A stretch of DNA of 64,000 bases from an uncultured bacterium (lineage in GTDB: Bacteria > Patescibacteriota > Minisyncoccia > Phycocordibacterales > PALSA-1337), in the NCBI GenBank assembly GCA_963701025.1, contig OY969557.1, positions 36,849 through 100,848 on the forward strand. The letters run 5' to 3'. Position 1 is the stretch's first letter, and each line of letters starts with the position of its first letter. Of the stretch, positions 9,934 to 57,055 are shown in pieces. A program made the position numbers and the translations under genes. Below the pieces are notes generated by a model. That model was not told the DNA's origin, did no database searches, and saw only the letters and a program-made list of their open reading frames with translations.

Positions 9934-9985
9934 GGAAATCCGAATCTACGAATAGCATCCGAATGCTACGAATGGCGAATAAAAA

Positions 9986-10011
9986 GCGAGCCTTGAATGG
10001 GCTCGTTTTTT
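9986..10011 (+). terminator. rho-independent terminator after the RNR gene
   Basis: gcgagcc-ttgaatg-ggctcg followed by tttttt. Confidence 0.7.
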
Positions 10012-10077
10012 AGAGGATTGTGGTGCGGGCGACTAAGAAGTAAGGTACCAGTGGCAAGTTCATTTTGGTTACTTTCC

Positions 10078-10104
10078 AAAAGTGTCAAGAAAGTTGTCAC
10101 TTTT
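10078..10104. repeat. palindromic motif AAAAGTGTCAA-GAAAG-TTGTCACTTTT (member of a recurring family)
   Basis: Near-perfect inverted repeat. The same arm sequences recur at 15307-15331 and 61965-61991, and relatives occur at 26146-26210 and 61864-61927. Confidence 0.6.
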
Positions 10105-10304
10105 AATGAGTAAAGGGTATGGGATATCTATGATCGGACCCCCCGTTTTCAAAACCGTATATCTATACGGAATACACACTGCACCCCACGATTCATAGCA
10201 GTTGATATGATGTTTTATGTCCTGAATCGTATGGTTATACGGATTTGAGAATAGGATGTCGGAGAGAGAGGTGTCCCGTCTCGCCGGATAAAAAAGCCGC
10301 TTTC

Positions 10305-10333
10305 TTGTCAAGGCTCCTTAAATCTGCTATATT
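10305..10333 (+). promoter_or_regulatory. sigma70-like promoter for RNase P RNA (TTGTCA-N17-TATATT)
   Basis: The -35 and -10 hexamers have 17-bp spacing and sit immediately upstream of the rnpB 5' end. A similar TGCTATATT -10 context lies upstream of lepA. Confidence 0.4.
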
Positions 10334-10339
10334 GCCCCC

Positions 10340-10792
10340 AGCTGTACCAGACGACCGCGCCGCGCCTTTTTGGAGCCTAAAAAATTTCGGCTTCGAAAAG
10401 GCGCGGTGAGGAAAGTCCGAACACCGGCTTTGTGGGGACATCAAAGCGATCGCTCCCATAAAGCAGACGAGTAGCAGGTAACGCCTGTCAGGGTAACGCC
10501 CAGAGGTGCGAACAGTGACGCCCGAGCCGAAAGGCGGAGGCTCCGCGATATTCGCCGGTCGAAAGGCTGGCGGATGAGGCGGATGAATTCCTTGGCGACA
10601 GGGAAGTGCAACGGCAAAATCCTTACTTCGGTGCAAGACCGCGTCCCGCGAGGCCCTCAAAAGCCGAACGGGAAGAGTCGCTCGAGGTCGGCAGTGATGC
10701 CGATCCCAGATATATGGTTGTCCCGTCCGTTCGCCCTTCGCCGCTTGGCGGAGGCGGATGGATAGACAGAATTCGGCTTACGGTACGGCCAG
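10340..10792 (+). ncRNA. rnpB: RNase P RNA (bacterial type A), approximate ends
   Basis: The conserved P4 strands GAGGAAAGTCCG (10407-10420) and ACAGAATTCGGCTTA (10766-10780) are present, together with GGTAACGCC and AAGTGCAACGGCAAA internal motifs. A P3-like hairpin gcgcctttttggagcc...cggcttcgaaaaggcgc lies near the 5' end. Confidence 0.8.
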
Positions 10793-10907
10793 GAGATCCC
10801 CGTTTCGTTCCCGTCATTTTGACGGCGGACGAGCGGGGATTTCCGTTGGCGCTTGCCGAGCGGTTTGCTATACTTACAGGGCATTTTACCAGCACTAATT
10901 TTCCCAC

Positions 10908-13340
10908 ATGCCCATGAACCCAGAGTCCTCATCGAGTCGCGAACTTTCAAGGATCGAGGCATGGGCCTATCGCGTCCTCGTTGCCGCCGTATTCCTGGTC
11001 CCGCTCGCATTCCTGCCGACTAACTATGTCTCTCTTGATTTGGTAAAGACGGTCATCATCGTTCTTGCCGTTGCCGCTTCGGCTGTCCTCTATGTTTTCG
11101 TCGCTTGGAAGGAGAAGGCGGCCGTACTGCCGCCTCGCGCCATCCTCTGGTCGTCTGCGGCGATCATCGTCTCGGTCGTGGCGTCCGCGCTCGCCGTCCA
11201 TCCGATCTCGAAGTCGTTCTTCGGCCAAGGGTTCGAGACCGACACGGTCGGCTTCATTCTCGTCCTCTTCGGTGCTCTCTGCGTCTCCTATACGGCGATC
11301 GTCCGTCGCCCGGAGCACGCCGTCGGCCTTTATGCCGCCGTCGTCGCGTCTTTTTTCGTACTTGAAATATTCCACGCTCTGCGCTTCATCTTTGGCCAAG
11401 GTTTCGCTTCGCTAGGCATACTCTCATCTGTGACCGCGACTGCATTGGGAAGCTGGTATTCCATAGGAGACTACGCTCTTATCGTGTTCATCATCGTTAT
11501 CACTGCCCTTACTCTCCTGCCTCTGTCGCGCGTCATGAAGATAGTCTATGGTCTTGTCGCTCTCGCTGCTTTTGTCGGGGTGTTTTTCGTCAATGATATG
11601 CGCGCATGGGCTGTTGCCGCCGTGGTATTTTTGGGCTTTGCTCTCTGTGCCACTTTTTCTCGGCCTAGCCCAGAACCTGATCGTGCCAAAAGTGATCAAT
11701 CAGGAAAGAGCATGTCTATTGTCCGCGTCTGGCTCATTCGGATTGCCTGGTTGCCGTTCGTGGCCTTCATCGTCTGTGCGGGCTTTGCCTGGAAGGGAAG
11801 CGTTATTGCCAGCCCAGCCATCGGCGCGATCGGCGCTAACTATTCGGAAGCGCAGTTGCCGTGGCAGCAGACTCTCGACGTCGGGGCCGGAGCGATCAAA
11901 GATTCACCGATCCTTGGGGCCGGGCCCAACCGATTCACCCAAGCCTATATCGCCCACAAGCCGGCCGAGGTCAATGCGACCGACGCCTGGAGCGTTGAGT
12001 TCAGCTCCGGCTCCGGCTTCATACCGACCCTCTTCGTCACGGAAGGACTCTTTGGCATCGTCGCCTGGATCGTCTTCCTGGTCTTCCTCGGCATCGTCGG
12101 TGCCCGTGCATTGCGCTACGTCGGCCGGCGGACCGCCGATCCCCGTGAGCGTTTCATCCTTATCTCTTCCTATGCCGTCTCGGTCTTCCTTTGGCTTATG
12201 CTCATAGTCTCGGTCCAGCCTCACGCGCTCATCTTTCTCACATTCGTAGTCATGGGCGTTTTTCTAGGTTCGTCGGTTTCATTCGGCGCCGCTTCAGGAT
12301 GGGTGATTCCGTTCGAGGCAGGAAGGCGCGCCAGGATCTCTCCTTACGCTCTCGGGCTTGTCGTCTTTCTAGCCGCGGCGGTTTCAGTGATCTATATCAA
12401 GGATGCCGTAGCTCTCGCGTATTTCGGCGCTGGCATCAGAGAGTTGAACGTTTCGTCTGATGCCCCGGCCGCCGATGCCGACTTTTCCCGGGCGCTTGCT
12501 CTCCATGATTCAGATATCTTCTGGCAGGCGCGCGCCGAAGCCGGCATATCCGCTGCGCAGAAAGTAATATCTTCGGTTACGCCGTCGTCGCCGGCTTCGA
12601 CCACGCAGGCCGCCGCGACCGCGGTCGCGGCGATCATCAATCGATCTCTCGGCTATGCGGAAAAAGCCGTGGCCTACGATCCGTCGTATTATTCCAATTA
12701 CCTTTCCGAAGCTCGCGTATCGGCCCAGGCCGCTAGCGTCGGCATGACAGGTGCGTACGACACCGCCGTCGCCGCCTACACCCAAGCCTCGCGTCTCGAT
12801 CCGGGGAACCCGTCCATATATCTCTCTCTGGCGCAACTCCAAGCGCAGATGAATAAGCTTCCTGACGCTCTTCAGACGCTAGGTTCCGCCCTTCAGGTCA
12901 AGAACAATTACCTCGACGCCATATATCTCCTGTCGCAGGTCGAGGCGGCTCAAGGCAACTTGAAAGACGCCATAACCGCCGCCGGAGTGGCCATACAGAT
13001 CAACCCGCAAAACCCTCTTCTCTTTTTCCAGCTCGGCCTTCTGGAATACAATAACGCCGCCTATAGTGACGCTGTTGCCGCGCTCGAAAAAGCAGTCGCC
13101 CTCGAGTCAGATTACGCCAATGCGCGCTACTTCCTGGCCCTCTCCTACGCCCGTTTGGGCAGGACCGCCGACGCCCTCACCCAGTTCAACCAACTGGCCG
13201 TCTCCAATCCCGGCAACCAGACGGTCCAGTCCGCCATAACTGCTCTCAAGTCTGGCAAGTCCATATTCGCTCCTGCTACGGCTTCCGCTGCCGCCGCGGC
13301 CAAAAATCCCCAGCTTCCTCTCAAGGAAAAGAGCCAATAG
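10908..13340 (+). CDS. polytopic membrane protein, O-antigen ligase (Wzy_C)-like with C-terminal TPR repeats
   Basis: 810 aa with about 12 predicted TM helices, then repeated AxxYxxLAxxY-type TPR-like motifs (e.g. ANARYFLALSYARLGRTADAL). Confidence 0.5.
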   Translation: MPMNPESSSSRELSRIEAWAYRVLVAAVFLVPLAFLPTNYVSLDLVKTVIIVLAVAASAVLYVFVAWKEKAAVLPPRAILWSSAAIIVSVVASALAVHPISKSFFGQGFETDTVGFILVLFGALCVSYTAIVRRPEHAVGLYAAVVASFFVLEIFHALRFIFGQGFASLGILSSVTATALGSWYSIGDYALIVFIIVITALTLLPLSRVMKIVYGLVALAAFVGVFFVNDMRAWAVAAVVFLGFALCATFSRPSPEPDRAKSDQSGKSMSIVRVWLIRIAWLPFVAFIVCAGFAWKGSVIASPAIGAIGANYSEAQLPWQQTLDVGAGAIKDSPILGAGPNRFTQAYIAHKPAEVNATDAWSVEFSSGSGFIPTLFVTEGLFGIVAWIVFLVFLGIVGARALRYVGRRTADPRERFILISSYAVSVFLWLMLIVSVQPHALIFLTFVVMGVFLGSSVSFGAASGWVIPFEAGRRARISPYALGLVVFLAAAVSVIYIKDAVALAYFGAGIRELNVSSDAPAADADFSRALALHDSDIFWQARAEAGISAAQKVISSVTPSSPASTTQAAATAVAAIINRSLGYAEKAVAYDPSYYSNYLSEARVSAQAASVGMTGAYDTAVAAYTQASRLDPGNPSIYLSLAQLQAQMNKLPDALQTLGSALQVKNNYLDAIYLLSQVEAAQGNLKDAITAAGVAIQINPQNPLLFFQLGLLEYNNAAYSDAVAALEKAVALESDYANARYFLALSYARLGRTADALTQFNQLAVSNPGNQTVQSAITALKSGKSIFAPATASAAAAAKNPQLPLKEKSQ

Positions 13341-13360: not shown

Positions 13361-15038
13361 ATGGTCAAGAAATGGTTCTCATTCATCGGCAAGGAAATAC
13401 GCGGTCTTCATGAGGCCGCGTATCTTCTGGCGATTTTCGCCCTCCTTTCCCAACTTCTCGGCCTCGTCCGGGACAAGCTCTTGGCTTTCACTTTCGGCGC
13501 CGGACACAGTCTCGATATCTACTACGCGGCGTTCCGGATACCTGATCTCATATTCGCCTCGGTCGGCTCTCTGGTCTCCGCTTCCATTCTCCTTCCGTAT
13601 TTCATCGAGCGCTTCGGACGGAATTCAGAAGAGGGCCGAGCCTTTTCCGACGCCATATTCACCATATTCTTCGGCCTGATGATCGTCGTCTCGGTCATCA
13701 TGTTCGCCATCGCCCCGTGGCTCATCCCCCGTGTCATACCCGGCTTCGCCCACGACCCGTCCCTGCCGGACCTCATCTTCTCCATGCGCATCATGCTCCT
13801 GTCGCCATTCTTCCTCTCCCTTTCCAATCTCTTCTCCAGCCTGACCCAGATGAGACATCGCTTCCTGGTCTACGCGGCGTCGCCGGCTCTCTATAACATC
13901 GGCATCATCGCCGGTACGCTCCTCATATATCCTCTGCTCGGCGTCCGCGGCTTGGCCATCGGCGTGGCCATCGGCGCCTTCCTCCACATGGGCATACAGA
14001 TGCCGTTCCTCTCCGGCGAGAAGCTCATGCCGCGCTTCACTCGCGCCATCGATTGGCCGCACGTGAAGGCCGTCCTCTACTCGGCTCTTCCGCGCACGGT
14101 CACCCTGTCGGCCAACCAGATCGCCTCTTTCGTCCTCGTCTCGCTGGCTTCGCTCATGACGGCCGGCTCCATCTCCATATTCAATTTCGCTTTCAATCTC
14201 CAATCGGTGCCCTTGACCATCATCGGCGCCAGTTATTCGTCCGCCGTCTTTCCGACATTGTCTCGCCTGTATTTCGATAAGAACATAAAGGAGTATCCTG
14301 GAGAAGATGATCGCATCGGCCAGGCACATCATCTTCTGGTCCATGCCCATCATGGTGCTCTTCATCGTCCTGCGCGCCCAGATCGTCCGCACGGTCTTGG
14401 GCGCCGGTAAGTTCGATTGGGCCGATACCCGGCTCACCGCCGCCATGCTGGCTCTCTTCACCATCTCGACCATCGGCCAGAGCCTGATCGTGCTTTTCGT
14501 CCGTGCCTTTTACGCCGAGGGCAAGACCAGCAAGCCGCTCCTCATCAACGCCATTTCCGCGACGCTCATCGTCGTCTCCGGTTTTGGATTCATACGTCTT
14601 TTCCAGATGTACCCGATATTCCAATATTTCATCGAAAATCTCCTCAAGGTCGATGGCCAGACCGGCACCATCGTGCTCACGCTGGCTCTGGCATATTCGC
14701 TCGGCGTCATCGTCAACACGGTCCTGCATTGGTGGACGTTCGCTCGGACGTATCCCGGATTTACCAAACCGGTCATGTCGACCCTGTTCCACAGCTTTGC
14801 CGCCTCGGTCATCATGGGCTATGCCGCGTTCCAGGGCTTGCGCCTGTTCTCCTTCTTCCCGCAGGAGAAGGTCTGGGGCATATTCATGCAGGGCTTCTGC
14901 GCCGGGCTGTCAGGACTCATTATCGGCGTCGCCGTCCTCATCCTGCTCAAGAACAAGGAGCTCGCCGAAGTCTGGCGCACTCTCCATCACAAGATATGGA
15001 AAGCCAATGTGCCGCCGGCGGAGGTGGAGCATTTGTAG
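13361..15038 (+). pseudogene. murJ: murJ (lipid II flippase, MviN family) interrupted by a single +1 frameshift near 14297
   Basis: ORF 13361-14410 carries the MurJ N-terminus (LGLVRDKLLAFTFGAGHSLDIYYAAFRIPDLIF). ORF 14307-15038 carries the C-terminal half in the +1 frame. Removing one C at tatCCtgg restores ...DKNIKEYLEKMIASARHII... Could be a sequencing indel. Confidence 0.6.
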
Positions 15039-15306
15039 GGAAGCGCGCGTAAATCCTCAGAGATTTCTGTCGATATAATGCGTGGCTTTTTGATACATCC
15101 ATTTCGTGCGCTTTTCCGTGGTCGATCTTCGGGCAATTTTTCTCTTTTCGAATTTCTTCAGGATATAAAGCGTCGTTGTCCTTGGAAGTTTTGCTTGCCG
15201 AGCTACGACAGAGACATCTGCATATAAGGACTGTCAATCAAATAGGCGGCACTTGCAAATGATGCTTAGGGGCGGGGGAGAGGACATGTATTTTGCTCAC
15301 CCAGTG

Positions 15307-15428: not shown

Positions 15429-17288
15429 ATGACCCCCTCCCATATCCGCAACTTCAGCATCATCGCCCACATAGACCACGGCAAGTCCACTCTTGCCGAC
15501 CGCTTGCTTGAGATCACGGGAACGATCGAAAAACGGAAGATGCAGGAGCAAGTGCTCGATAGCATGGAATTGGAAAGGGAACGGGGCATCACCATCAAGC
15601 TTCAACCGGTGCGTATGATGTGGCGGCCCGGCGGGACGGACAAGACCGGAACAAAAGGCGATGAATACATGCTTAATCTGATCGACACACCCGGCCACAT
15701 CGATTTCTCATATGAAGTTTCGCGCGCGCTCAAGGCCGTCGAAGGATCTCTATCTTCTAGTCGATGCCACGCAGGGCGTCCAGGCCCAGACCCTGACTAC
15801 TTTGAATATGGCCAGGGAAGTCGGGACTTGCCATAATTCCCGTCGTCTCCAAGATAGATTCGCCGTTGGCGCGCACCGATGAAGTGGTAAAAGAAGTCAG
15901 CCAGCTCCTCGACTGCGCCGAATCTGACGTCGTTAAAGTCTCTGGTAAGACCGGCGAAGGCGTCGAGCATCTTCTAGACGAGATCATCAGAAGGATTCCC
16001 GCGCCTCAAAGTCCTCCACCCTCTATCCTCCACCCTCTATCCTCCACCCTCCACCCTCCACCCTCTACTTTCCGCTCCCTCATCTTCGACTTCCAATACT
16101 CCAACCACATTGGCGTCATCGTCTATGTCCGTGTCATGACCGGTTCGGTCAAGCGCCACGACAAGCTTGTATTCAAAGTATCCGGAAGGGAATTCGAGGC
16201 CATCGAAGTCGGCATATTCAAGCCTGACGAAACAGTCGCCGAGTCGCTCTCCGCCGGCGAGATAGGCTACATCGTCACCGGGATAAAAGAGCCGGGCATC
16301 GCCTCGGTCGGAGACACCATAGCTTCGGTCAAGGACACCTTGCCGCCGCTACCAGGCTATCAGACGCCGCGGCCGGTCGTTTGGGCCTCGCTCTATCCGG
16401 AATCGCAGGACGATCTGCCGCTCCTGCGCCAGGCCTTGAGCCGGCTCAGGCTGTCCGATTCGTCCTTCACCTATGAAGAAGAGGCTTCCGGCACCCTCGG
16501 CAAAGGCTATCGTTGCGGCTTCCTCGGCATGCTCCACCTCGAGATAGTGACCGAGCGCCTGCGCCGGGAATATCACATCGAGCTCGTCATCACCATGCCG
16601 ACCATCACTTATGCGGTCGAGCTCAAGAATGGCAAGAGATCAATCGTGTATTCGCCGTCACTGTTTCCTGACGAGAATGAAGTGCAAAAGTCTCCGAACC
16701 GATAATGACCATGAAGATAATCACGCCGCCGCAATATCTCGGTGGCCTGATGAAGCTCATATACGACCATGAAGGAGAGATACTCTCCACCGATAATTTC
16801 GGCGACAATCGGACTCTCCTCACGCTGCAGATGCCCTTGCGCGAGCTCATGCGCAATTTCTTCGACGAAGTCAAGAGCGTCTCATCCGGCTATGCTTCGA
16901 TATCCTACGACATCACCGAGAGCGGACCGGCCGACGTCGTGCGCATGGATATCCTGGTCGCCGACGAGCCGGTGGCGGCATTTGCCCGCATAGTCTCGCG
17001 CCGCCGAGCAGAGGAAGAAGCCGAGAAGCCGTCGAGCGTCTCTACGACATCATGCCGCGCGAGCTCTTCACCTATAAGATCCAGGCCAAAGCTCTCGGCC
17101 GCATCATATCCTCGCGCACGATATCCGGCAAGAAGAAAGACGCCGCCGCCACGCTCTCCGGAGGCGATATCACCCGCAAGATGAAATTGCGCGAGAAGCA
17201 AAAAGAGGGCAGGAAGCGCCTCAAGGAGCACGGCTCGGTCATCATCCCGCAGGAAGTCTTCGTAAAGATGATGCGGTCGGGGGAATGA
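15429..17288 (+). pseudogene. lepA: lepA (elongation factor 4) with at least 4 frameshifts plus an in-frame CCTCCACCCT-type tandem-repeat expansion
   Basis: Four successive ORFs (15429-15836, 15866-16705, 16705-17184, 17052-17288) tile the LepA sequence. It runs from [11 protein letters not shown] through [16 protein letters not shown] and TITYAVELK to the ELFTYKIQAKALGRIISSRTISGKKKDAAATLSGGDITRKMKLREKQKEGRKRLK...VIIPQEVFVKMM end. Single-nt insertions lie near 15758 and 15824 and single-nt deletions near 16688 (A4 tract) and about 17040. The repeat tract 16012-16072 inserts about 13 extra residues (PPPSILHPLSSTLHPPPSTF). Confidence 0.7.
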
Positions 17289-20317: not shown

Positions 20318-21912
20318 CTATGAGAACAACACCCTCCCGGTCATCTCTTTCGGCACCGGTAGTCCGAGCAAGCTCAAAACCGTCGGGGCCACGTCTGAAA
20401 GTCCGCCATCGTGGAGCTTTACGGCGTCCTTAACAGCAGCTCCCGCTAGAATGCACGGCACGGGACTGGTCGTATGAGAGGTATGTCTCACGCCGGTCGC
20501 GGGATCGACGTTGATCTCCGCATTGCCATGATCGGCGGTTATGAGAGCGGTGCCGCCGGCGGCTTCCAAGGCCGTGATGACGCGTTTTAACTGCGCGTCG
20601 ATCTTTTCCACCGCGACAATTATAGCCGGAACGTTGGCGGTATGGCCGACCATGTCCGCGTTGGCGAAATTTATGAATATAAAAGGCGTGCCGCTCTTGA
20701 TCTCGGCGATGGCCGTGTCGGCAATGGCCTCGGCCCGCATCTCCGGAGCCTGATCGTGAGTCTTTATATCCTTACGGCTGGGGATTAGAATGTCGCGCTC
20801 GCCCTGGTACGGCTTCTCGCGCCCGCCGTTCAGGAAATAAGTGGCGTGGGCGAATTTTTCCGTCTCGGCGATGTGTGCCTGGCCGAGCCCGGCCCTAGCG
20901 ACTTCTTGGCCTATGGTCGTGCCGACCACGGTTGGCGGGAAAGCCACGATACAGTCGAAATCCGCGCTGTATTCGGTCAGTGTGACGAACATGATATTAT
21001 CGTTCTTTCCCCTAGAGATGAGTTTCTCCGAGAGCATGCGAGCCCGGTCGGCCCGGAAATTGAAGAAGAAAACAGCGTCATTCTTCTCTATGGCACAGCC
21101 ATTCGCCGTCGACCCGTCTCCTTGCGGAATGACGCATACGGCAGGTTCCATGAATTCATCGCTTTTGCCGGTCTCGTATTGGTCTTCCATGTATGCCGAT
21201 GGTTTTATCGAACAAACATTGCCCACGCATTCGAACATTGCCTGTTCGGTTTTGGCCAGCCGGTCCCAGTTATGATCGCGATCCATGGCATAATAGCGGC
21301 CGGAAATCGTGGCTATGAAAAAATGCGGTGGCACCGAGTATGTCGGCAGATATAGGATGGATAGTCGGCATTGAGCTCGGCCAATACCGCCTCCAGTTCT
21401 TTCAGATATTCCGAAGCGCTCTGCGGCGGCGTGTCGCGGCCGTCGGTGAAGACGTGGATGGCTACTTTTTGCGCGCCTTTTTCCTTGGCAAGGCGCAGGA
21501 AAGCATAAAGATGCTCCTGATGGCTGTGGATGCCGCCGGGGGAGACTAGACCTTGGACATGCAAGGTGGAGTCGTATTTCTTCACATGCTCGAACAGGCC
21601 GAGGATAGCCGGATTTCTGGCGAAAGCGCCGGAGTGTATGGCTTTGTCTATGCGCACGAGATCGCTGTCCACTATGGTGCCGGCGCCAATGGTCATATGG
21701 CCGACCTCGCTATTGCCCATGACGCCTTTCGGAAGGCCGACCGCCGGTCCGGAAGCCTGAAGCAGGCAATGAGGGTATGTCTTCCAAAGATGATCGAAGA
21801 ACGGTTTTTTCGCCGCCGCGATGGCATTGTCTTTCGTGTCCGCGCGATAGCCCCAGCCGTCGAGGACGATGAGCATGACGGGTTTTTTCGGCAAAGAGAT
21901 TTCTTTCGTCAT
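20318..21912 (-). CDS. gpmI: 2,3-bisphosphoglycerate-independent phosphoglycerate mutase, split by a frameshift at an A6 homopolymer (21318-21323)
   Basis: The N-terminal ORF 21313-21912 (LIVLDGWGYR...NSEVGHMTIGAG...) and C-terminal ORF 20318-21334 (...IATISGRYYAMDRD...ITADHGN...) are in frames differing by one. Adding one T to the 6-T run on the coding strand fuses them. Confidence 0.8.
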
Positions 21913-26634: not shown

Positions 26635-26670
26635 CTTCATTACGATATCTTGATAAGCTGTCTTTCTCAT

Positions 26671-27363
26671 ATGTCGACCCAAACCAACCCGACCATAGAC
26701 GGAATGTTCAGCGCCGGAGCGCATTTCGGTCTTGGCCGTTCGCGCAGGCATCCAACGGTCGTGGCATACATCTTCGGCACCAAGAACCGCACCGACATAT
26801 TCGATCTGGAGAAGACCGCCCGCTTGCTCGACGCCGCCAAAGCCTATATCGCTTCGCTCGCCAAGGAGGGCAAGACCATCCTCTTCGTCGGCGGCAAGAA
26901 AGAGGCTTCGGCCGCGGTCATGTCGTCCGCCCAGTCCCTCAACATGCCGTATGTCGAAGGACGCTGGATCGGCGGCACCCTCACCAATTTCGGCAATATC
27001 AGGAAGCGCATCGAGCGCCTCGAGAAACTCACTTCCGACCGCGAAAAGGGGGAACTGGCCAAATACACCAAACGCGAGCGCATGCTTTTCGACAAAGAGA
27101 TAGCCAAGCTGGAACGGATGTTCTCCGGCGTCGTCTCCCTGAAGAAGATGCCCGACGCTCTGTTCATCGTCGATCCCCGCAAAGAGCAGAATGCCGTCAG
27201 TGAGGCCGCCCACATGAAGATACCAACCATCGCCATAGCCGGTTCCGACTGCGACATCGCCGAGATACGCTATCCGATCGTCGGCAATGACGGATCCAAG
27301 GCCAGCATCCAGTTCTTCCTCGCTGAAGCGACCAAGGCGTATCAAGAAGGCAAGAAGATTTAA
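26671..27363 (+). CDS. rpsB: 30S ribosomal protein S2
   Basis: MSTQTNPTIDGMFSAGAHFGLGRSRRHPTVVAYIFG... The ATG at 26671 is preferred over the ORF-track TTG at 26650. Confidence 0.9.
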   Translation: MSTQTNPTIDGMFSAGAHFGLGRSRRHPTVVAYIFGTKNRTDIFDLEKTARLLDAAKAYIASLAKEGKTILFVGGKKEASAAVMSSAQSLNMPYVEGRWIGGTLTNFGNIRKRIERLEKLTSDREKGELAKYTKRERMLFDKEIAKLERMFSGVVSLKKMPDALFIVDPRKEQNAVSEAAHMKIPTIAIAGSDCDIAEIRYPIVGNDGSKASIQFFLAEATKAYQEGKKI

Positions 27364-30438: not shown

Positions 30439-31680
30439 TCACCTCCAACTCCCCACATTCTTCGTAACCGCCCGTCCCCACGATATCGCCACCCACACCG
30501 GCGCAAGGAAACCGTAGAGGAAGGCGTAGGCAAACATGTCACGCGACGGCTTCCATGAGCCGCTGGCTATGCGCTTGCCGAAGAAGATGAAGACGACGGC
30601 CATAGCGACGAGAGCCATGGTCAGCAGGCGGATCTCGGTGGTATTGAAGAAGAATAATTGGAAAGTCGGCCAATGCCATGACCAACCTATGAGCCGCCAG
30701 CGTTCGATGGTATCGGCGGCAGTCGTGGCGGCATTGACCAGGGAATATCCGGCGAAGAAGATGATTGTGACCAACGACAGGACGCCGGCAGGCAGGGTGA
30801 AGGTGCCTATCTGTCCGTGCCTGCGGCTGAATAGGAGATCGCGGTAATCGCGTAGGTTGAGCAGGAAGCCGGTCGTCCATCGGACGCGCTGTTTGACCAA
30901 AGCGCGCACGGTCGCCGGCGGCGTGGTGTAGACATACGCATGTTCCGCGTTTTCTATCTTCAAGTTGTGCCGATGCAGGCGAAGGGCCATCTCCAGATCC
31001 TCGGTATTGTGGGCGCTCTTGAAAGGTCCCACGATGCCGAAAACGGAGCGTCGGAACATGGAGAAAGGCCCGGGCGTGACGTGGATGGCATTCAAGGTGC
31101 TGTACATCTTGCGCAGGAATATGCCGATATTGTATTCGGCGTGCTGGATATGTTCCAGTATGTTCCGGGGCGACCGGACCTTTATGGCGGGAGTCACGGC
31201 CATGACGGCCGAGTCGGCGAACAAAGGCACCATCCGGTTCAGCGCCTCCGGATGTACGAAAGAATCTGCATCCAAGCAGCCGACTATGTCGCTCGCGCTA
31301 TTCTCTATGCCGAGATTGACGGCAGTATGCTTGCCCCCGTTTTTCTTTTGAAGGACCTTTATTTGCGGGTCATTTTCATATCTTTGGAGATAAGACAGCG
31401 TATCGTCCGTCGAGCCGTCATCAACGGCGATGATCGAGAGCTTGTCTTGCGGGTAATTCAATCTTTTCAGCGAGTCGATAGTTCCGACAATGGTGGCTTC
31501 TTCGTTGAAGCACGGGACGATGACGGAAACGGTCGGCAAGACGCCGTAATCGAACACGGCTTTGCTCGGCTTACTCTTCAAGCTATCGCGGTGCTCGATG
31601 AGGGTTATTATCAGGAATACCTGTATATATAGGGAAGCAAACAGGAATATCTCGACTGTAGTCGAAAGGACGGGATTCAT
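30439..31680 (-). CDS. family 2 glycosyltransferase, processive type (QxxRW), with flanking TM segments (PgaC/NodC/cellulose-synthase-like)
   Basis: VSVIVPCFNEE...AVDDGSTDDT...LDADSF (DxD)...QRVRWTTG. Confidence 0.75.
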   Translation of the reverse strand: MNPVLSTTVEIFLFASLYIQVFLIITLIEHRDSLKSKPSKAVFDYGVLPTVSVIVPCFNEEATIVGTIDSLKRLNYPQDKLSIIAVDDGSTDDTLSYLQRYENDPQIKVLQKKNGGKHTAVNLGIENSASDIVGCLDADSFVHPEALNRMVPLFADSAVMAVTPAIKVRSPRNILEHIQHAEYNIGIFLRKMYSTLNAIHVTPGPFSMFRRSVFGIVGPFKSAHNTEDLEMALRLHRHNLKIENAEHAYVYTTPPATVRALVKQRVRWTTGFLLNLRDYRDLLFSRRHGQIGTFTLPAGVLSLVTIIFFAGYSLVNAATTAADTIERWRLIGWSWHWPTFQLFFFNTTEIRLLTMALVAMAVVFIFFGKRIASGSWKPSRDMFAYAFLYGFLAPVWVAISWGRAVTKNVGSWR

Positions 31681-31763: not shown

Positions 31764-32906
31764 ATGAGAAAGGTCATCACCATCACCGACCCGAAGGAAA
31801 AGGAGCTTCTGGCGCGGCTCGAAAAACAGACCGACTTCAAAAGTCTGCGCATCAAGAGGCTTTTGGCTTTGCCGGACTTGACCAAGAAATCTCATTCGCC
31901 GGTCAAGATCTTGGTCGACCAAATATTGAAATTGCCGCGCTTCGAGGATTTCGATATCGTGGATTTCCCGCGTATAGTCACTGTCGAGCAGGACTTCGAC
32001 CTATTGAACACGCCGAAAGAACATCCTAGCAGAAAGGAAACGGACACGTATTATCTCAACGATAAATATCTTTTGAGGACGCAGATGACGGCGTTCTGGT
32101 CTTTTTATTTGAAAGACGAGGAAGTCTTGAAAAGGCTCGAAACGGAAGGGGAGATAAAGGCTTTGGCACCTGGCATAGTCTACAGAAAAGACGAAATAGA
32201 CCGCCATCATTTTCCGGCTTTTCACCAGATAGACGGTCTGCTTATCTGCAAGAAGACAAAGAGGGTCATCACCCAGGATGATCTGAAGGATGTTCAGGCC
32301 GATCTGGCGAAAGGAATATTCGGTGCGGACATCAAGTACCAATTCTTGGACGATGAATTTCCGTATACGGTTGAAAGTCTCGAGATGGACATCATGTTCA
32401 ACGGAAAGTGGCTCGAAGTCAACGGCGCCGGCCTGGTCAATCCCGTGGTCTTGAAGAATTTCGGCCTTAACCCGGAGATATACAATGGCTGGGCCTTCGG
32501 CTTCGGCGATAGATTGGCCATGATAAAAATGGGCATCCCTGATATCCGCATCCTCTGGTCCGAAGACCCACGCATCACCGGACAATTCAAGGATATAGAC
32601 AGTAAGTTCAAGGAAGTCAGCAAATATCCGTCCACTCTGCGCGATATATCGTTTATCGTGGACAAGAGCGTCAGCTTGAACAATTATTATGAGATCGTGC
32701 GCGAATATGCCGGAAATCTGATCGAAGAGGTGAAACTTCTGGACAAGTATGAAAACGCAGAAAAATTTGGCGAGGATAAGACCAGCTACACCTTCCGTAT
32801 CGTCTATTGCTCGCCTGAGAGGACTCTGACCAATGAAGAGGTGAATGTCGTACAGGAAAAGATCATAGATAAGACCAAGGTGGAATTAAAAGCGATTGTG
32901 AGATAA
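31764..32906 (+). CDS. pheS: phenylalanine--tRNA ligase alpha subunit fused to a C-terminal FDX-ACB anticodon-binding domain (mitochondrial-type monomeric PheRS architecture)
   Basis: PheS motifs HPSRKETDTYYL, LLRTQMTA, YRKDEIDRHHFPAFHQIDGL and GWAFGFGDRLAMIKMGIPDIR are present. Then comes KYPSTLRDISFIVDKSV...YTFRIVYCSPERTLTNEEVNVVQEKII, which matches the FDX-ACB domain normally found at the C-terminus of PheT. No pheT gene is adjacent. Confidence 0.75.
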   Translation: MRKVITITDPKEKELLARLEKQTDFKSLRIKRLLALPDLTKKSHSPVKILVDQILKLPRFEDFDIVDFPRIVTVEQDFDLLNTPKEHPSRKETDTYYLNDKYLLRTQMTAFWSFYLKDEEVLKRLETEGEIKALAPGIVYRKDEIDRHHFPAFHQIDGLLICKKTKRVITQDDLKDVQADLAKGIFGADIKYQFLDDEFPYTVESLEMDIMFNGKWLEVNGAGLVNPVVLKNFGLNPEIYNGWAFGFGDRLAMIKMGIPDIRILWSEDPRITGQFKDIDSKFKEVSKYPSTLRDISFIVDKSVSLNNYYEIVREYAGNLIEEVKLLDKYENAEKFGEDKTSYTFRIVYCSPERTLTNEEVNVVQEKIIDKTKVELKAIVR

Positions 32907-33554: not shown

Positions 33555-35779
<2,225 letters not shown>

Positions 35780-43471: not shown

Positions 43472-44002
43472 TTAAGGCCGTGCATGAGCGCACCGCTTGC
43501 AAACCCCGAAGAGCTCGAGCGAATGGGTGTTGATGCTTTGGAATGTTGAATGCTTCAAGATGCCTCTAGTCGCATTCTCCACATCGCATCCCTCAAAATC
43601 CTCGATCATGCCGCATTCCGTGCATACGATGTGGTGATGATGGTCCAGGGCGAGCTCATAATACGCCGATTCTTTATGTATATCCAAGCGTCGTATGATG
43701 TCGGCCGCTTCAAAAGAGGCGAGCGTGCGGTATATGGTCACAAGGTTGACGTCTCTTTTCTTCAGCTTCTCGCGGATATGATCCGCGTTAATGGGTCTGC
43801 GGTCGGCAGAAAATACATCAAGGATAGCCCACCTAGCCGGTGTGTTCTTCAGGCCATTTTCTTTGAGCATGGCGGAGAAGTCTTTTGACATATACGAACA
43901 TATTAAGCCATCGGCCTCTGTGGATGTCTTGTTATATTCAGCGTACTGGCGCAACAGCGTATTCAACTTTCCTTTTGTTTGCGGTGATTGAGAATGCTTC
44001 AT
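43472..44002 (-). CDS. Fur-family metalloregulator (probably Zur)
   Basis: ARWAILDVF...NLVTIYRTLASFEAADIIRRL...HHHHIVCTECG...CKRCAH. Confidence 0.75.
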   Translation of the reverse strand: MKHSQSPQTKGKLNTLLRQYAEYNKTSTEADGLICSYMSKDFSAMLKENGLKNTPARWAILDVFSADRRPINADHIREKLKKRDVNLVTIYRTLASFEAADIIRRLDIHKESAYYELALDHHHHIVCTECGMIEDFEGCDVENATRGILKHSTFQSINTHSLELFGVCKRCAHARP

Positions 44003-44003
44003 G

Positions 44004-44837
44004 TTATTTCTTTTTCCCTACAATAATGGTATTGATAATGTCTTTTGATCTTCCGCTTCTGCGCACCACATCGATATTTTTAAGATGCTCGGCCGTGATC
44101 TCTGGGTAGAGGAGCGTGCCAAGATCGCTCACGCTTCGCATGACGATATGGGTGTTTACGGCACTCTTTCCGGCGATATGATCGATTATCTTTTTCTTTT
44201 CCTCGTCAGTCTCTCCCGCCAGAGCGGCAATGAAAATCGTCTGATATTTTGAGATATTTACCATATCGAGGATATTCCCCTTTATGACGCGGATTCTCTC
44301 CGAGAGACCCGACTTATTGACAAGGCTCTGCGAGAGTTTGCACGCCTCATCATCCATATCGAGATTGTCTATCAAGGCATCGCATTTTCTCGCCATCATG
44401 ATCGATGAGAGGGGTAGCGGTCCAGAGCCCACAAAAAGCACGCTATGCCCGTCATGTATGTCGCATAATCTCATGCTCTCGATCTCAAGGTCGGTCATGC
44501 GTTCGTAGTTCGAGTAATACGGAAAGAAGCGCAATATTTTGTCCGCGTCTCTCGACCGGAGAGCGCTTTTTACCCAGAATAGTTCGAGCTCCGTCTCGGC
44601 CTTTGCCGACATTTTACGGAGCCCGTTTTTAATCGAGCGTATTTCTTTGTCCTCCAAAATGTCTTTTGAATGATCCGCTGGAGTGTCGAGGACTATGCCC
44701 ACTAGTTCTCTAAAAGTGGAATTTATCTTTTCCGACGGTTCAAGGCTCTTTGCAGACAAAAGCTTCCCGTGAATGCCGAGAATTTTATCCCTTTTCTTTT
44801 GTGAAATTGCCCGTGTCATTTTGTATAAAAACTGCAT
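44004..44837 (-). CDS. nicotianamine synthase-like protein (NAS/CntL-like aminobutyryl transferase)
   Basis: LFVGSGPLPLSSIMMA and TIFIAALAGETDEEKKKII match the conserved NAS SAM-binding and core motifs. Confidence 0.6.
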   Translation of the reverse strand: MQFLYKMTRAISQKKRDKILGIHGKLLSAKSLEPSEKINSTFRELVGIVLDTPADHSKDILEDKEIRSIKNGLRKMSAKAETELELFWVKSALRSRDADKILRFFPYYSNYERMTDLEIESMRLCDIHDGHSVLFVGSGPLPLSSIMMARKCDALIDNLDMDDEACKLSQSLVNKSGLSERIRVIKGNILDMVNISKYQTIFIAALAGETDEEKKKIIDHIAGKSAVNTHIVMRSVSDLGTLLYPEITAEHLKNIDVVRRSGRSKDIINTIIVGKKK

Positions 44838-44873
44838 GATCCTGATCGGTCAAAGATCATGCAGGTGGATCTA

Positions 44874-46538
44874 TTAATCGTTACCACACGGTCTGCTCAT
44901 GAGTTTGATTGCGATTGTTTCGGATTCGCGAATCCTCTTCAGAGCCTCTTGCCACTTGACGCGAAGTTCTGGCGTGTATGCAAGAGATAAGCAGTGTTCA
45001 GCGGCTCTCCGTGCGTGCGACGGATAATCCCCATGCTCGATACCATAGAGCAAGACTTCTAGGATTTCGTCACATTGCCACGATGCCCGCTCAGGATCGG
45101 AGTTAAGGCTCTTGAGGGAGTGAATCCCTTCGGCCGCCATAGCTCCAGGTTTCAGCCTTTCGACTGTCGAGACGAGTCCCTGTCCGAAGAAGTCTCCGTG
45201 GCGGTTTGTCCACCACACCATCGATACGCCGAGCTCGCGCTGGTTGGTCGCAAGTTCATGGGGGACGATCTCGGCTTTCCGGTTTCTCACGATCTCCGCG
45301 CACGAAACCCAATATTCCATACAGTGCTTCAGGACCCTCGGGAACCATTCGTCAATGACGTACGGTCTCCGCGACATCTCCTTCACGAGTTGGAGCTCTT
45401 CCGGGTGAGTGATGATGCTGATCCCCTTACTGGAAGGGAGCACTATCGCCTCATGAGGGATCTTTGCCAGGATGGCCTTGATGGCTTCGACGGTCTCTTC
45501 CCGAGTCGCAGTCTCCTTGCGTAGAAGCTGGTAGCCTTGGCCTTCCTCGCCTGGCATTTTCTTCATGGCAACAAGTGTTGCCAATTCAGGAAGATCCTGC
45601 TTGATATCCACTTTCCTTGAAGTATAGAACGTCACGAACCGCCGTGAGTCTTCGACTGTCTGCTCCCAATCGCCGTGCACCTCGTTGAAAAGATGACCGT
45701 CGATTGCTCCCTTGATCCTAAGCAGGAAATCTTTCCCGGCAAACGCCTTTCGGAGATCGTAAAGAGTCGTTTCCTGACCAAGATCGTAGAAGTAGGGATA
45801 CATATTATGAACATGATGTTCGTGATGAGCGTGATTATGGTGATGACCGCAACTGCATCCCGCGTGATGCTCATGGCCATGATGATGGTCCGTCCGACTT
45901 ACCGAAAGCCCCATTCTCCGTTTCGCCCCTTTCTCAAAGAGGTTAAGGATTAGATCCGGAATCTCGGGACCATTCGGAATATGGACGACCGGGATACCAG
46001 GGTTCTCCTGTGCCACGAATTCCAGCACGCCACCCGATTCATCCCAATCCAAGAGGGTGTGAATCTGGTGCATGTGCTTGGTAAGGCCCACTGCCAAGGT
46101 TGCTGCCCTTACTTGGCTCTTGATCACATCGGCATATCTTACAAGATCGAGCCGGTGGTGCTTTTGCGAAAGCAGGCAGAGGATATGGAACGGATACGGG
46201 CACGATTCGAGGAAATCCCTAGTCTCGTTTCCGGCCGTGATGCCGAAGCCTTCCAAGAATACCCAAGTGATATGCGATTTCTCGAGTTTCGCGAGGGTGT
46301 CCTTGAGGTCCGCGGTATCGGAACAAGTAAAGCATCCGTTGGTCATTGCGACCACTTCGGCTGACCTGCGCGCGAGCTCGCCGTCGATCAGGGCACCCTC
46401 GTCATTTACGACGTAGGCGACCTTATCTCTGGTGGGGAATCCACGGGATTCCAGAGCCTGAATTACGTTCAGGACAAACGTCGTCTTGCCGGCTCCCAGG
46501 GGGCCGACAGCGGCGAATAACTGCATGGCTTTTTTCAT
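44874..46538 (-). CDS. COG0523-family metallochaperone GTPase (CobW/YjiA/ZigA-like) with a His-rich segment and a ~200-aa C-terminal extension
   Basis: P-loop GPLGAGKTT; NGCFTCS (CxCC-like) motif; His-rich tract HHHGHEHHAGCSCGHHHNHAHHEHHVH. Confidence 0.7.
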   Translation of the reverse strand: MKKAMQLFAAVGPLGAGKTTFVLNVIQALESRGFPTRDKVAYVVNDEGALIDGELARRSAEVVAMTNGCFTCSDTADLKDTLAKLEKSHITWVFLEGFGITAGNETRDFLESCPYPFHILCLLSQKHHRLDLVRYADVIKSQVRAATLAVGLTKHMHQIHTLLDWDESGGVLEFVAQENPGIPVVHIPNGPEIPDLILNLFEKGAKRRMGLSVSRTDHHHGHEHHAGCSCGHHHNHAHHEHHVHNMYPYFYDLGQETTLYDLRKAFAGKDFLLRIKGAIDGHLFNEVHGDWEQTVEDSRRFVTFYTSRKVDIKQDLPELATLVAMKKMPGEEGQGYQLLRKETATREETVEAIKAILAKIPHEAIVLPSSKGISIITHPEELQLVKEMSRRPYVIDEWFPRVLKHCMEYWVSCAEIVRNRKAEIVPHELATNQRELGVSMVWWTNRHGDFFGQGLVSTVERLKPGAMAAEGIHSLKSLNSDPERASWQCDEILEVLLYGIEHGDYPSHARRAAEHCLSLAYTPELRVKWQEALKRIRESETIAIKLMSRPCGND

Positions 46539-52912: not shown

Positions 52913-54148
52913 TCATCTACCCCACCAATCAGTCTCCGCCCTCTTCATGTACTTGGCCAATTGATCGAGAGGCACGACATCCTGGGCGTGAGTATCGGTG
53001 CGGCGGACGATGGCGGTCTTCTCGACAGCCTCCTTCTTTCCCATGACTATGGAATAGGGAGTGTGGTGTTTTTCGTTAGCCGACACTTGGGCGCCGAGGC
53101 GGTCTTTAGCCAGGCACAGATAGAGGGGGATCTTGACCTGGCGGAGGCGCTCGATGACGTTGAGGGATATGAGCTTGGACTCCATGCCGAGCTGCATGAA
53201 CGAGGCCACCGGCCGCTTCATCTTGGATACCGGTTTGCGGAGGGACGCGCTCTCGCCCTTCACCAAGAGCGACATGCCGAGGCCTTGAATGTCACGCTTC
53301 ATGCCGAGCCTGCGGGCCAGGCCGTTATAACGCACGCCTATACCCAGGATGCGCTGGTCTTTGGCCGTGGCGGACGTGTCCACGATGGCGAATATAGTCT
53401 CGCTACAATACTTGCGGTTGCCGATGAGGCTGTTGTTGATGGTGTAAGGGATATCGAGGGTCTCGCAATATTCGAGAACTTCCTCTAGATGGCGACGACT
53501 GGTCTCGGAAAGGAAGTCGATGGAACGCGGCGCCTTGCCGTTGAGCTCTTTCTCGGATTCGTCGTGCGACGCGAGCAGGTCGAAAGCGTCGCGCTTGAAG
53601 AGCTGGCGCGCCTCCGGGGTCATGTCGTTGATGTTCTTGCGGTAGTAGGCGGTGAGCTCGCGGGCGAAGCGAGCTATGGAGTCGCGGTCGCCGAGGGAAT
53701 TCACTTCCACCGCCGTCTCGTTGTAGCCCTCTTCGGCGAGCATAGCCCGGGCGGCCTGGATGAGAGTCGCTTCGGCGATGGAGCCGGACGCGCCAAGGAT
53801 CTCAAGGTCGGCATAGCGGTGATAGCCGCTTCTCTTCACCGAGCCCTTGTACGGATCCTTGAAATAGAGCATGACCGGCTGTGGCTCGCTGTGCCAAGAG
53901 GTCTCTTGGTAGGTGCGGATGAGAGCGATCTTCTCCTCGGCATGGAGAGGCAGGCGGCCCTTCTTGCCCATCTCGTCGTCGACGAAGTCTCCTTCCATTA
54001 TGCCTTTGGCCGCGTCGAGGTCGCTCTTCTCGATGGCTGGGCTTTTGGCCGGCCTGAAGCCGTAATAGACGGCCGTCTCGCCGATCTTGTCGAGGTGCTC
54101 GTACGATATGAATTTACCGTCGGATTTCTTTTTATTCGGTTTTTTCAT
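52913..54148 (-). CDS. histidyl-tRNA synthetase-family protein (HisS-like, with class-II anticodon-binding domain; catalytic motif 2 divergent)
   Basis: GRLPLHAEEKIALIRTY aligns to the GRSLTLRPEGT region. FKDPYKGSVKRSGYHRYAD is a degenerate counterpart of FRYERPQKGRYRQFHQ. IGVRYNGLARRLG...GLGMSL aligns to the motif-3 region. The C-terminal ~90 aa fits the HisRS anticodon-binding domain. Confidence 0.5.
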   Translation of the reverse strand: MKKPNKKKSDGKFISYEHLDKIGETAVYYGFRPAKSPAIEKSDLDAAKGIMEGDFVDDEMGKKGRLPLHAEEKIALIRTYQETSWHSEPQPVMLYFKDPYKGSVKRSGYHRYADLEILGASGSIAEATLIQAARAMLAEEGYNETAVEVNSLGDRDSIARFARELTAYYRKNINDMTPEARQLFKRDAFDLLASHDESEKELNGKAPRSIDFLSETSRRHLEEVLEYCETLDIPYTINNSLIGNRKYCSETIFAIVDTSATAKDQRILGIGVRYNGLARRLGMKRDIQGLGMSLLVKGESASLRKPVSKMKRPVASFMQLGMESKLISLNVIERLRQVKIPLYLCLAKDRLGAQVSANEKHHTPYSIVMGKKEAVEKTAIVRRTDTHAQDVVPLDQLAKYMKRAETDWWGR

Positions 54149-54182
54149 GTTTGTATCATTCGAATTGGTCCGTCGATTCGCA

Positions 54183-54782
54183 TTACAATTTTTCCTCTCC
54201 CGGCAGTATCGATATGTTATTTATGGGCAGGAGCCGGACGATCGGCCTACCGATGATGAAATGCCGATCGAGCGGACCCCAGACGCGCGAGTCGGAGCTC
54301 TGGGCGCGATTGTCGCCCATGACGAAATAGTGCGTGGCATCCATGGTGGTGGTGGCGATATTGTCGTATGACGAGTGGTCTGCCGCTACGAAGGAGCTGT
54401 CCACGATGAAGCCTTTGGGATGCGCCGCATTCGCCACGAATACTTTGCCGTCCGTGACGGAGAAGCTCTCTTTCGGAAGGACGATGATGCGCTTTATATA
54501 GTAGATCGAAGGATCATTCGGATACTCAAAGACGATGACATCTCCCCTCTGCGGCGGCTCGAAGCGATAGGTCAGACGATCTACAATGAGAAATTGGCCC
54601 GTGGCGAAAGTCGGATCCATAGAGGCCCCGTTCACGATGAATGGCTCGGCCACCAGCCACCGTATCGGCAGGGCTATTATGAGGGCGATGATGATGACCT
54701 GTACCCACTCGCGCACGGCATGCCAGAAGGGATGCTTATTCGGGGTACTGGCTTGTGGTGCCGCCTCAGAGTCAGGGCTCAT
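54183..54782 (-). CDS. lepB: signal peptidase I
   Basis: NGASMDPTF (catalytic Ser)...YIKRIIVLP (Lys box)...GDNRAQSSDSRVWGP. Confidence 0.85.
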   Translation of the reverse strand: MSPDSEAAPQASTPNKHPFWHAVREWVQVIIIALIIALPIRWLVAEPFIVNGASMDPTFATGQFLIVDRLTYRFEPPQRGDVIVFEYPNDPSIYYIKRIIVLPKESFSVTDGKVFVANAAHPKGFIVDSSFVAADHSSYDNIATTTMDATHYFVMGDNRAQSSDSRVWGPLDRHFIIGRPIVRLLPINNISILPGEEKL

Positions 54783-55212
54783 GATTGGCGTATTGTACTA
54801 CCAAGAGGGGTTTGACACAAGAGGTTGGAGTGTGATGTGGGCTTTTTATGGAAAATTTTTCTATGATTTTGGGCGGATAGGAAGACGGATAAGAAAGCGG
54901 ATAAGAAGGCGCAGTGAAGAAAAAAATTGAATGAGGAGATTTTAGCGAGATAGTGAGGGGTGGTTCTGTCTCCTAAAGGTGGTCGTGTGGGATGTTATAC
55001 GAACTGAATTATGTAACTATTTGTGATATATCACTGTCTCTTCTAACGAATCAATCAAAAGGGTCCTATTAAGGTGAAAACGGCTCAAAACAAGGGTATA
55101 TTGATATTTTTAGTATAAAATGACACTTTTATGTCAAAAGTGCTTGACTTTTAAACTTTAATAGAATAGTATATAAGTATTATTACAAAATAATGTAATT
55201 TTAAACAAATCC

Positions 55213-56484: not shown

Positions 56485-56488
56485 GCTT

Positions 56489-57055
56489 ATGAATAAAAAG
56501 AAAAGCTTTAAAGTATATTATTTATTGATCAGTGAAGGGACCACTGAATTCAATCTATTCGGTTACTTAACGACCAAAAAATTTAAAGAGGATTTTGTAA
56601 AATCTAACATTCAGTTCAGTATCAAGGTAGAAATTGTAGAAATCTCAGTGTCTCAAGGTAAATTAGGTGGTGTTAGTGATGTTAAGGGCTTTAAATCAAA
56701 GTACGATTTAATTAAAGAAAGATATGACGGGCAAAAACGTTTTTTCCTCCTAGACAAAGACCTCGATGATTCTTCAGCTATAGAAGCTCTTATCAAACAA
56801 AATAATGATATTGTGCAATTTATAGAACATAATTCAGAATATCTATTATTGAAACTTTCTGGTAAGAATCCTAAAGATCCTTCTAATTTCACCAACCTGG
56901 CTGAATTTAGGAACTATTGCAAATCTGAATTTCAAAAGCATTTCAGCAAAAAGGCCTCTGATTTCAAAGACACTGACTTTGATTCCATATTTAACAATAT
57001 TACAGATAAAGAAATAAAGGCCAGTTTTATTGAGTTATTCTCAACCCTATCATAA
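56489..57055 (+). CDS. RloB-type TOPRIM-like protein (AbiLii/AriB-class nuclease partner)
   Basis: YYLLISEGTTEFNLFGYL (the vcEGxTE TOPRIM glutamate motif), FFLLDKDLDD (DxD-like motif) and IEHNSEYLLLKLSG (a SNPxFExWLLLH-like C-terminal motif). Starts 5 bp after the ATPase stop. Confidence 0.65.
   Translation: MNKKKSFKVYYLLISEGTTEFNLFGYLTTKKFKEDFVKSNIQFSIKVEIVEISVSQGKLGGVSDVKGFKSKYDLIKERYDGQKRFFLLDKDLDDSSAIEALIKQNNDIVQFIEHNSEYLLLKLSGKNPKDPSNFTNLAEFRNYCKSEFQKHFSKKASDFKDTDFDSIFNNITDKEIKASFIELFSTLS

Follow-up and report, generated by a model that had tools for sequence, protein, structure and literature searches.

A single-chain phenylalanyl-tRNA synthetase of mitochondrial architecture in Parcubacteria, a probable substitute for the two-subunit enzyme

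Introduction

In bacteria, phenylalanyl-tRNA synthetase (PheRS) is a textbook obligate (alpha-beta)2 synthetase, and the genes coding for its two subunits, pheS and pheT, are universal single-copy markers. Mitochondrial PheRS is established to function without editing, and to our knowledge the single-chain form has so far been described solely for mitochondria and plastids. In this article, we focus on a gene for a predicted single-chain PheRS, found at positions 31764..32906 (+ strand) of a 64-kb stretch (hereafter, the window) of contig OY969557.1, which belongs to an uncultured bacterium of the Candidate Phyla Radiation (CPR, Patescibacteria). In our estimation the gene probably codes for a functional enzyme, most likely the only PheRS of this organism, which has displaced the ancestral (alpha-beta)2 enzyme.

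The monomeric PheRS, consisting of an alpha-type core and the B8 domain, is known from mitochondria (human FARS2, yeast MSF1) and has been classed as 'PheRS-M' (AARS Online, PMC11580382; PMC10810186). In plastids, the monomer type has taken over from the (alpha-beta)2 enzyme on several occasions, with cases in diatoms, cryptophytes, eustigmatophytes and plants (Gile et al. 2015, PMC4494062; PMC6367104). Méheust et al. observed that the alpha and beta subunits of PheRS cluster in one family. A literature search, thin on subscription journals, returned no report of a bacterial PheRS of the single-chain form, of how widely it occurs in the CPR or of a pheT stump, nor any on the SrmL family or on monomeric or mitochondrial-like PheRS in bacteria or huge phages. 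The monomeric kind of PheRS and its mechanism are thus known, and what is new is a host group for which no earlier report was found, together with unusually direct evidence of displacement.

Domain architecture of the single-chain protein

The reading frame opens with an ATG, codes for 380 residues including that of the start codon, and closes with a stop at 32904-32906. It harbours a class-II PheS catalytic core (residues 39-275, positions 31878..32588, +; Pfam PF01409, tRNA-synt_2d, E 2e-52) followed by a B8-type FDX-ACB anticodon-binding domain (residues 286-380, positions 32619..32903, +; PF03147, E 2.2e-24). The latter covers the whole profile (1-94 of 94) and aligns to the C-terminus of the bacterial beta-subunit family TIGR00472 (pheT_bact, positions 696-798). 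Judged by these scores, the domain matches lie far beyond chance. The preliminary description of this DNA, made from its letters, had proposed an open reading frame (ORF) carrying the class-II motifs of PheS and continuing in frame into an FDX-ACB domain; both parts of that proposal are confirmed, and the peptides it quoted, SKYPSTLRDISFIVDKSV... and YTFRIVYCSPERTLTNEEVNVVQEKII, are located at residues 286-368. The core contains HPSR/DTYY at residues 87-97, motif 2 with R141 and FHQIDG at 153-158, the phenylalanine (Phe) pocket FPYT at 199-202 and motif 3, GWAFGFG-DR, at 242-250. Motif 2 (GIVYRKDEIDRHHFPAFHQIDG) and motif 3 (GWAFGFGDRLAM) are both intact.

A Pfam search revealed no match to PF02912, tRNA_bind, B3_4, B5 or tRNA_synthFbeta in the protein; the same search detects PF02912 and the beta-subunit modules in canonical CPR PheS and PheT. 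Since modules B1-B7 of the beta subunit are all missing, the protein would have no B3/B4 editing site, and the N-terminal coiled coil of the alpha subunit is missing as well. With canonical (alpha-beta)2 PheRS (TIGR00468/TIGR00472), the protein shares a homologous core and FDX-ACB (B8) domain and presumably the reaction, but one chain stands where there are two, lacking PF02912, tRNA_bind, B3_4, B5 and the catalytic-like domain of the beta subunit. Identity to the resident CPR PheS and PheT is 25-32%.

With regard to the mitochondrial PheRS (FARS2, MSF1; TIGR00469), the layout is the same: one chain, in which a PheS core precedes FDX-ACB, devoid of the alpha coiled coil and of B1-B7, hence of an editing domain, and carrying the same Phe-pocket and motif residues, including GWAFG. 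The differences are that the gene described here is bacterial and chromosomal, whereas the mitochondrial enzyme is nuclear-encoded and organelle-targeted, and that the identity between them is about 31-35%. In addition, the 380 residues here compare with 405-415 crystallised residues in FARS2, and because the protein here is shorter, its core aligns in one stretch rather than in the two of FARS2.

Predicted structure, active site and selection

The mitochondrial-type architecture put forward in the preliminary description is supported by both sequence and structure. In a sequence search of the PDB, the top match was human mitochondrial PheRS (E 4e-55, versus 1.6e-39 for bacterial PheS chains). 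The comparison of an AlphaFold model with human FARS2, which that description had also proposed, was carried out with an AlphaFold2 model built from a 44-sequence alignment and confident along the whole chain (mean pLDDT 94.9, pTM 0.90). The six best Foldseek matches in the PDB were all FARS2 crystal structures in the closed state, with template modelling (TM) scores of 0.78-0.80 across the full length and a root mean square deviation of 2.8-3.6 Å over about 388 columns (3CMQ, 5MGW, 5MGU and others). The FDX-ACB domain of the model superposes on the anticodon-binding domain of closed FARS2; the TM score to the open, tRNA-bound form 3TUP is lower (0.58), as expected, because this domain is rotated there. 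Bacterial PheS chains cover the core alone of the model (Foldseek TMq about 0.55).

The ATP- and Phe-binding residues of E. coli PheS are conserved, and the catalytic and Phe-pocket residues agree with those of the mitochondrial enzymes as well. In the alignment to E. coli PheS, H87 and R90 correspond to H149 and R152, R141 to R195, and FHQ 153-155 to the region of Q208, while FPYT 199-202 matches F248, F250 (a Tyr here) and T251, A244 of GWAFG matches A294, and R250 matches R301. Comparison with close relatives yielded a dN/dS of 0.05-0.06, that is, purifying selection. Given the conserved residues, the fold and the dN/dS, the architecture, fold and active site fit, and as far as sequence and model can tell appear to be those of, a working single-chain PheRS.

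By this account, the PheS core would activate Phe with ATP and transfer it to tRNA-Phe, while the C-terminal FDX-ACB domain would read the GAA anticodon, swinging from the closed to the open position for tRNA binding by analogy with human FARS2. The enzyme would act as a monomer, synthesising Phe-tRNA-Phe without editing in vivo.

Displacement of pheS-pheT in related genomes

The window contains no pheT: its two PheT-sized ORFs code for a class II ribonucleotide reductase and a TPR protein, and when the window was searched by tblastn with E. coli PheT and full-length CPR PheT, the sole match was the FDX-ACB domain inside the single-chain gene. The absence of an adjacent pheT and the presence of gyrB as downstream neighbour (33573..35681, +; Pfam), both noticed at the outset, are therefore confirmed. 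The screen was extended with E. coli PheS and PheT as queries to 82 related loci, which together with the window amount to 1.19 Mb, and neither a second PheS nor a full PheT was present in them. There is likewise no partner pheT for the single-chain gene in the window or the related loci that would make its product a canonical alpha subunit.

One of these related loci is L022, from a 'Candidatus Paceibacteria bacterium'. In Moranbacteria with the canonical genes, the order is SecD-SecF-TyrS-(NUDIX)-pheS-pheT-Sig70/HARE-HTH-DUF8128-TrwB-MnmA, with a PheT of 820-835 residues; across the canonical-type Parcubacterial MAGs compared, the PheT proteins have 788-835 residues and carry tRNA_bind, B3_4, B5, tRNA_synthFbeta and FDX-ACB. 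In L022, the same genes occur in the order SecD-SecF-TyrS-[mini-pheT]-[single-chain gene]-Sig70/HARE-HTH-DUF8128-TrwB-MnmA, where the mini-pheT lies at 9552-9980 and the single-chain gene at 10001-11140, and the flanking proteins are 58-74% identical to those of the canonical-type locus. Between the end of tyrS at 9527 and the start of the sigma-factor gene at 11413, there is no room for pheS or for the remainder of pheT. Seven more loci (L023, L025, L062, L063, L068, L073 and L081) show the SecDF side, the TyrS side or both. In these relatives the single-chain gene occupies exactly the former two-subunit slot, between tyrS and the sigma-factor gene, and it has very probably replaced the normal genes there. 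This lends strong indirect support to the conditional proposal of the preliminary description, namely that an organism whose genome lacks pheT would depend on a streamlined single-chain PheRS with no editing domain.

The mini-PheT is an ORF of 133-152 residues ending about 20 nucleotides upstream of the single-chain gene in nine loci (L022, L023, L025, L047, L056, L062, L063, L073 and L081; truncated to 53 residues in L073). It matches residues 1-160 of PheT with 35-46% identity to E. coli, starts with 'MKFLxxWxKK' like PheT, and has tRNA_bind as its sole Pfam match, so that these ORFs are a stand-alone B1/B2 domain of PheT, made up of the start of B1 and the B2 OB-fold. The family comprises 471 database proteins, and all 120 matches listed are short and stand-alone. 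A longer match, P0404, pointed to a contig on which canonical pheS (PF02912 and core) precedes pheT. P0225, which of all the cluster representatives searched is the canonical PheS closest to the query, was also tried as a seed for canonical CPR genes and set aside, for it comes from a Gram-negative organism with an Mla operon.

With 51-78% identity to the N-terminus of the resident Parcubacterial PheT, the mini-PheT is a remnant of the old pheT. Read from its gene order, the L022-type slot represents a case in which the single-chain gene displaced pheS-pheT in situ, and it constitutes the strongest available evidence that the single-chain enzyme suffices as the PheRS of the cell. The retained domain may act as a trans-acting tRNA-binding helper of this enzyme. 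No mini-pheT lies within reach of the single-chain gene in the window. As in plastids, a bacterial-type (alpha-beta)2 PheRS has been lost and a single-chain enzyme takes over. However, in the plastid case a nuclear-encoded protein is retargeted to the organelle, whereas here the event concerns a bacterial chromosome and the pheST locus itself, and, unlike in plastids, a stand-alone B1/B2 stump of PheT is kept in some lineages.

Distribution and relatives beyond Parcubacteria

Among 8000 candidates scored, 4629 database proteins matched the single-chain protein at E<=1e-10, and the 120 matches listed (77-88% identical) all carry both domains. The gene is present in at least 565 species-representative genomes, from Taylor-, Staskawicz-, Nealson-, Moran- and Wolfebacteria, Paceibacteria and similar groups. 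In an exhaustive search of 1.84 billion cluster representatives, 234 were retrieved at E<=1e-30, of which one or two account for the clade of the window.

The divergence of the single-chain protein is not coupled to that of the adjacent GyrB. Overall, its identity to the copy in the window is 60-80% where the adjacent GyrB is 52-56% identical to that of the window, and it reaches 73-80% in L017, L018, L021, L028, L029 and others with a GyrB in that same range; inside the window's own GyrB group (67-88%), the single-chain protein is 64-87% identical. Either unusually tight constraint or exchange among Parcubacterial orders would account for this pattern. The pheST-slot arrangement is scattered over several separate branches of the single-chain tree.

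Outside Parcubacteria, the closest relative, P0122, comes from a metagenome-assembled genome (MAG) of Oligoflexia. Another relative, P0126, is a 456-residue single-chain PheRS whose gene (L098, 9463-10833) contains 13 in-frame TGA codons, of which two fall on invariant glycines of motif 3; this pattern would indicate genetic code 25, of the Gracilibacteria/Absconditabacteria type, and the database translation was made with code 4. Huge phages also harbour related genes. The phage-type P0277 (grouped with P0133), of roughly 350 residues, is encoded at L009 10001-11047 on the 341-kb contig GROS21-1 scaffold_19, which bears phage hallmarks, and LR745206.1, deposited as a 635-kb 'uncultured phage', matches across both domains at 613881-614882. 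These phage genes share the two-domain architecture, but they are shorter, phage-borne and score above the cutoff of the mitochondrial family TIGR00469 (pheS_mito), and they would be auxiliary to the PheRS of the host.

For the neighbour-joining (NJ) distance tree, a rough one without support values, the CPR clade groups with P0121, P0122, P0125 and P0126. The eukaryotic mitochondrial sequences (choanoflagellate, chytrid and Vitrella) form a separate large clade with the proteins of roughly 350 residues, including the phage ones.

Family assignment and alternative explanations

Several observations weigh against a working single-chain PheRS that has displaced the two-subunit enzyme in this organism. 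Canonical PheS is encoded by several MAGs labelled 'Candidatus Moranbacteria' or 'Parcubacteria group', the longest of the contigs reaching 922 kb, so that absence of the canonical genes must be shown genome by genome, and a pheST pair may be encoded elsewhere in the genome of this organism, a possibility to which we give a low but not negligible weight. Between the 120 canonical-PheS and the 120 single-chain matches listed, no contig of shared length turned up, a comparison to which no weight is given at this scope. The locus in the window, by gyrB, differs from the old pheST slot, and displacement in this lineage would follow from its relatives and from a Parcubacterial clade that is both monophyletic and tight. 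In the active site, Asp157 replaces Glu210 of E. coli, and the subclade of the window has a one-residue deletion ahead of the motif-3 arginine. With regard to the NCBIfam hidden Markov models (HMMs), the score for TIGR00469 is 241 bits, below the cutoff of 258.35 for the curated mitochondrial family, and the protein is equally close to SrmL (242, for a cutoff of 300). In the NJ tree, finally, the CPR sequences form a clade of their own, separate from the mitochondrial enzymes and adjoining the true SrmL clade.

The score for the canonical alpha-subunit family TIGR00468 (pheS) is 159, for a cutoff of 237.45, and PF02912 is missing. For comparison, TIGR00469 scores reach 434-446 in eukaryotic mitochondrial sequences and 260-308 in the phage-type proteins. 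The homologs of the single-chain protein are named 'hypothetical protein' at NCBI and 'PheRS alpha chain' at JGI, probably because their HMM scores fall between families.

The alternative that survives best, although we consider it unlikely, is that the gene is an extra paralog or xenolog beside canonical pheS-pheT, serving as a specialised or back-up PheRS, for instance a stress- or inhibitor-resistant one. The canonical pheST of some Parcubacteria mentioned above is compatible with it, as is P0122, since it occurs in Oligoflexia, a group normally expected to have pheST. In L022 and its relatives, however, the single-chain gene takes the place of pheS-pheT at their own locus, where only the pheT stump remains, and the 1.19 Mb of related loci and window hold no second PheS or PheT. 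The spread over at least 565 species, the housekeeping context and the dN/dS of about 0.05 also argue against a dispensable copy. Furthermore, CPR genomes are small and seldom keep redundant synthetases.

A second alternative, which we hold to be very improbable, is that the protein is an SrmL-like 'PheS-related mystery ligase', in which the PheS fold is used for other ligation chemistry and which is no tRNA synthetase. In its favour, NF051887 (SrmL) is by a hair the best NCBIfam match (242.1 bits, E 8.8e-72, versus 241 bits for pheS_mito), the two clades are neighbours in the tree, and the proteins share a similar length and the layout of PheS core plus C-terminal domain. Membership is nevertheless rejected on score, pocket residues and context. 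The 242 bits are well under the cutoff of 300, whereas the true member P0182 scores 415.3. True members have a changed pocket (H to S/N, D to Y, the F248 equivalent to H, AFG to ASG/ALG), visible in their motifs DSISR/GNPGR, YTRY, HPYT and GLASG/GLALG, whereas the single-chain protein keeps the PheRS residues HPSR, DTYY, FPYT and GWAFG. As to context, the single SrmL locus compared, L006, contains two DegT and two NUDIX genes and an epimerase and its product has no Pfam FDX-ACB match, whereas the gene here either has a housekeeping setting (rpsB-tsf...gyrB in the window) or occupies the former pheST slot.

The true SrmL of that locus, P0284 (L006 5852-7102), is the last gene of a DegT-NUDIX-NUDIX-epimerase-aminotransferase cluster, and its PheS pocket is remodelled. 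These features, seen in the sequence, hint that SrmL may help to modify amino sugars or nucleotide sugars instead of charging tRNA.

We are equally far from accepting a recent fusion of the resident genes, through a deletion between pheS and the 3' end of pheT and independent of the mitochondrial and phage family: such a deletion would yield exactly this architecture, and a pheT remnant adjoins the gene in some genomes, but this origin is rejected on per-domain identities and gene order, as the core is 27-32% identical to Parcubacterial PheS and FDX-ACB 25-27% identical to Parcubacterial PheT, against 47-50% and 48-51% to P0121 and P0122 and 40% and 50% to the phage-type protein. For the mitochondrial enzymes, the corresponding values are 32-35% and 36-39%. 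A simple pheS-pheT deletion is ruled out because the pheT remnant sits upstream, not downstream, of the single-chain gene. With regard to the displacement of the two-subunit enzyme by a single-chain PheRS, which we retain as the probable reading, we infer that a foreign single-chain gene would have been inserted into pheT after B2, and that pheS and B3-B8 would then have been lost.

Genomic context of the window

The window is an ordinary chromosomal stretch of a CPR bacterium, with genes for enolase, iPGM, a release factor, FtsZ/FtsA, TsaD, HisRS, Pth, S1, rpsB, tsf and five tRNAs. A divergent gene for a GT2 glycosyltransferase (30439-31680) is the upstream neighbour of the single-chain gene. 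Farther upstream, rpsB (about 26650-27363, +) and tsf (about 27287/27368-27976, +), located by tblastn with the S2 and Tsf proteins of L001, serve as synteny markers. On the other side, gyrB follows the single-chain gene in most related loci. The order rpsB-tsf...single-chain gene-gyrB is found in L001, L012-L016, L020, L024, L032, L034, L043, L045, L052 and L055; this window-type context recurs on the 858-kb contig of a relative and in about 15 other loci. In L021 (11175-14414) and L028 (3487-6711), the gyrB that follows the single-chain gene is interrupted near residue 460 by about 1.25 kb, probably an intein.

Some housekeeping genes of the window seem to be split into adjacent pieces on the same strand (15429-17184, +; 20318-21912, -; 13361-15052, +; 5818-6696, +). 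An EF-G/LepA-like GTPase is found as three ORFs, iPGM as two and MurJ perhaps as two, and pyruvate kinase as a 292-residue barrel. Such splits may reflect indels in the assembly or real decay of the genes; the single-chain PheRS gene is intact. At 43472-46538 (-), three genes in series code for a regulator of the Fur family, a protein resembling nicotianamine synthase (PF03059, E 1.6e-49) and a CobW-like GTPase, and form a metal-homeostasis cluster, unexpected for a reduced CPR genome. The region 54000-58000 has a low GC content (0.39-0.41, versus about 0.52 in the adjoining stretches), carries an AAA_21/AbiEii-like ATPase (55213-56484) and an unannotated ORF of 188 residues, and is possibly a mobile or defence element.

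Significance

On a wider scale, we can tentatively propose that the single-chain PheRS is not a eukaryotic invention. It would belong to a laterally spreading pool of prokaryotes and phages (Parcubacteria, code-25 CPR, Oligoflexia and huge phages) which repeatedly displaces the two-subunit enzyme, sometimes leaving in Parcubacteria a B1/B2 'mini-beta' as trans-acting helper; the mitochondrial enzyme would have its ancestry in this pool, and translation in a large bacterial radiation would rely on a PheRS without editing. This broader scenario is, in our view, possible but rather doubtful, and well less assured than the displacement proposed for the organism itself.

If the single-chain enzyme is indeed the PheRS of these cells, the minimal, editing-less solution of organelles would work in free-living or episymbiotic cells too. 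It would also explain the 'missing' pheS and pheT markers and the 'hypothetical protein' annotations in CPR genomes, and prokaryotic relatives would be available for testing where the mitochondrial enzyme came from. At the loci with a pheT stump, the displacement of a synthetase is recorded on the very site where it took place, and the stand-alone B1/B2 domain suggests a trans-acting tRNA-binding function that can be tested. The mechanism itself is not new, and the relevance of these findings is moderate to high for the evolution of synthetases and the biology of the CPR.

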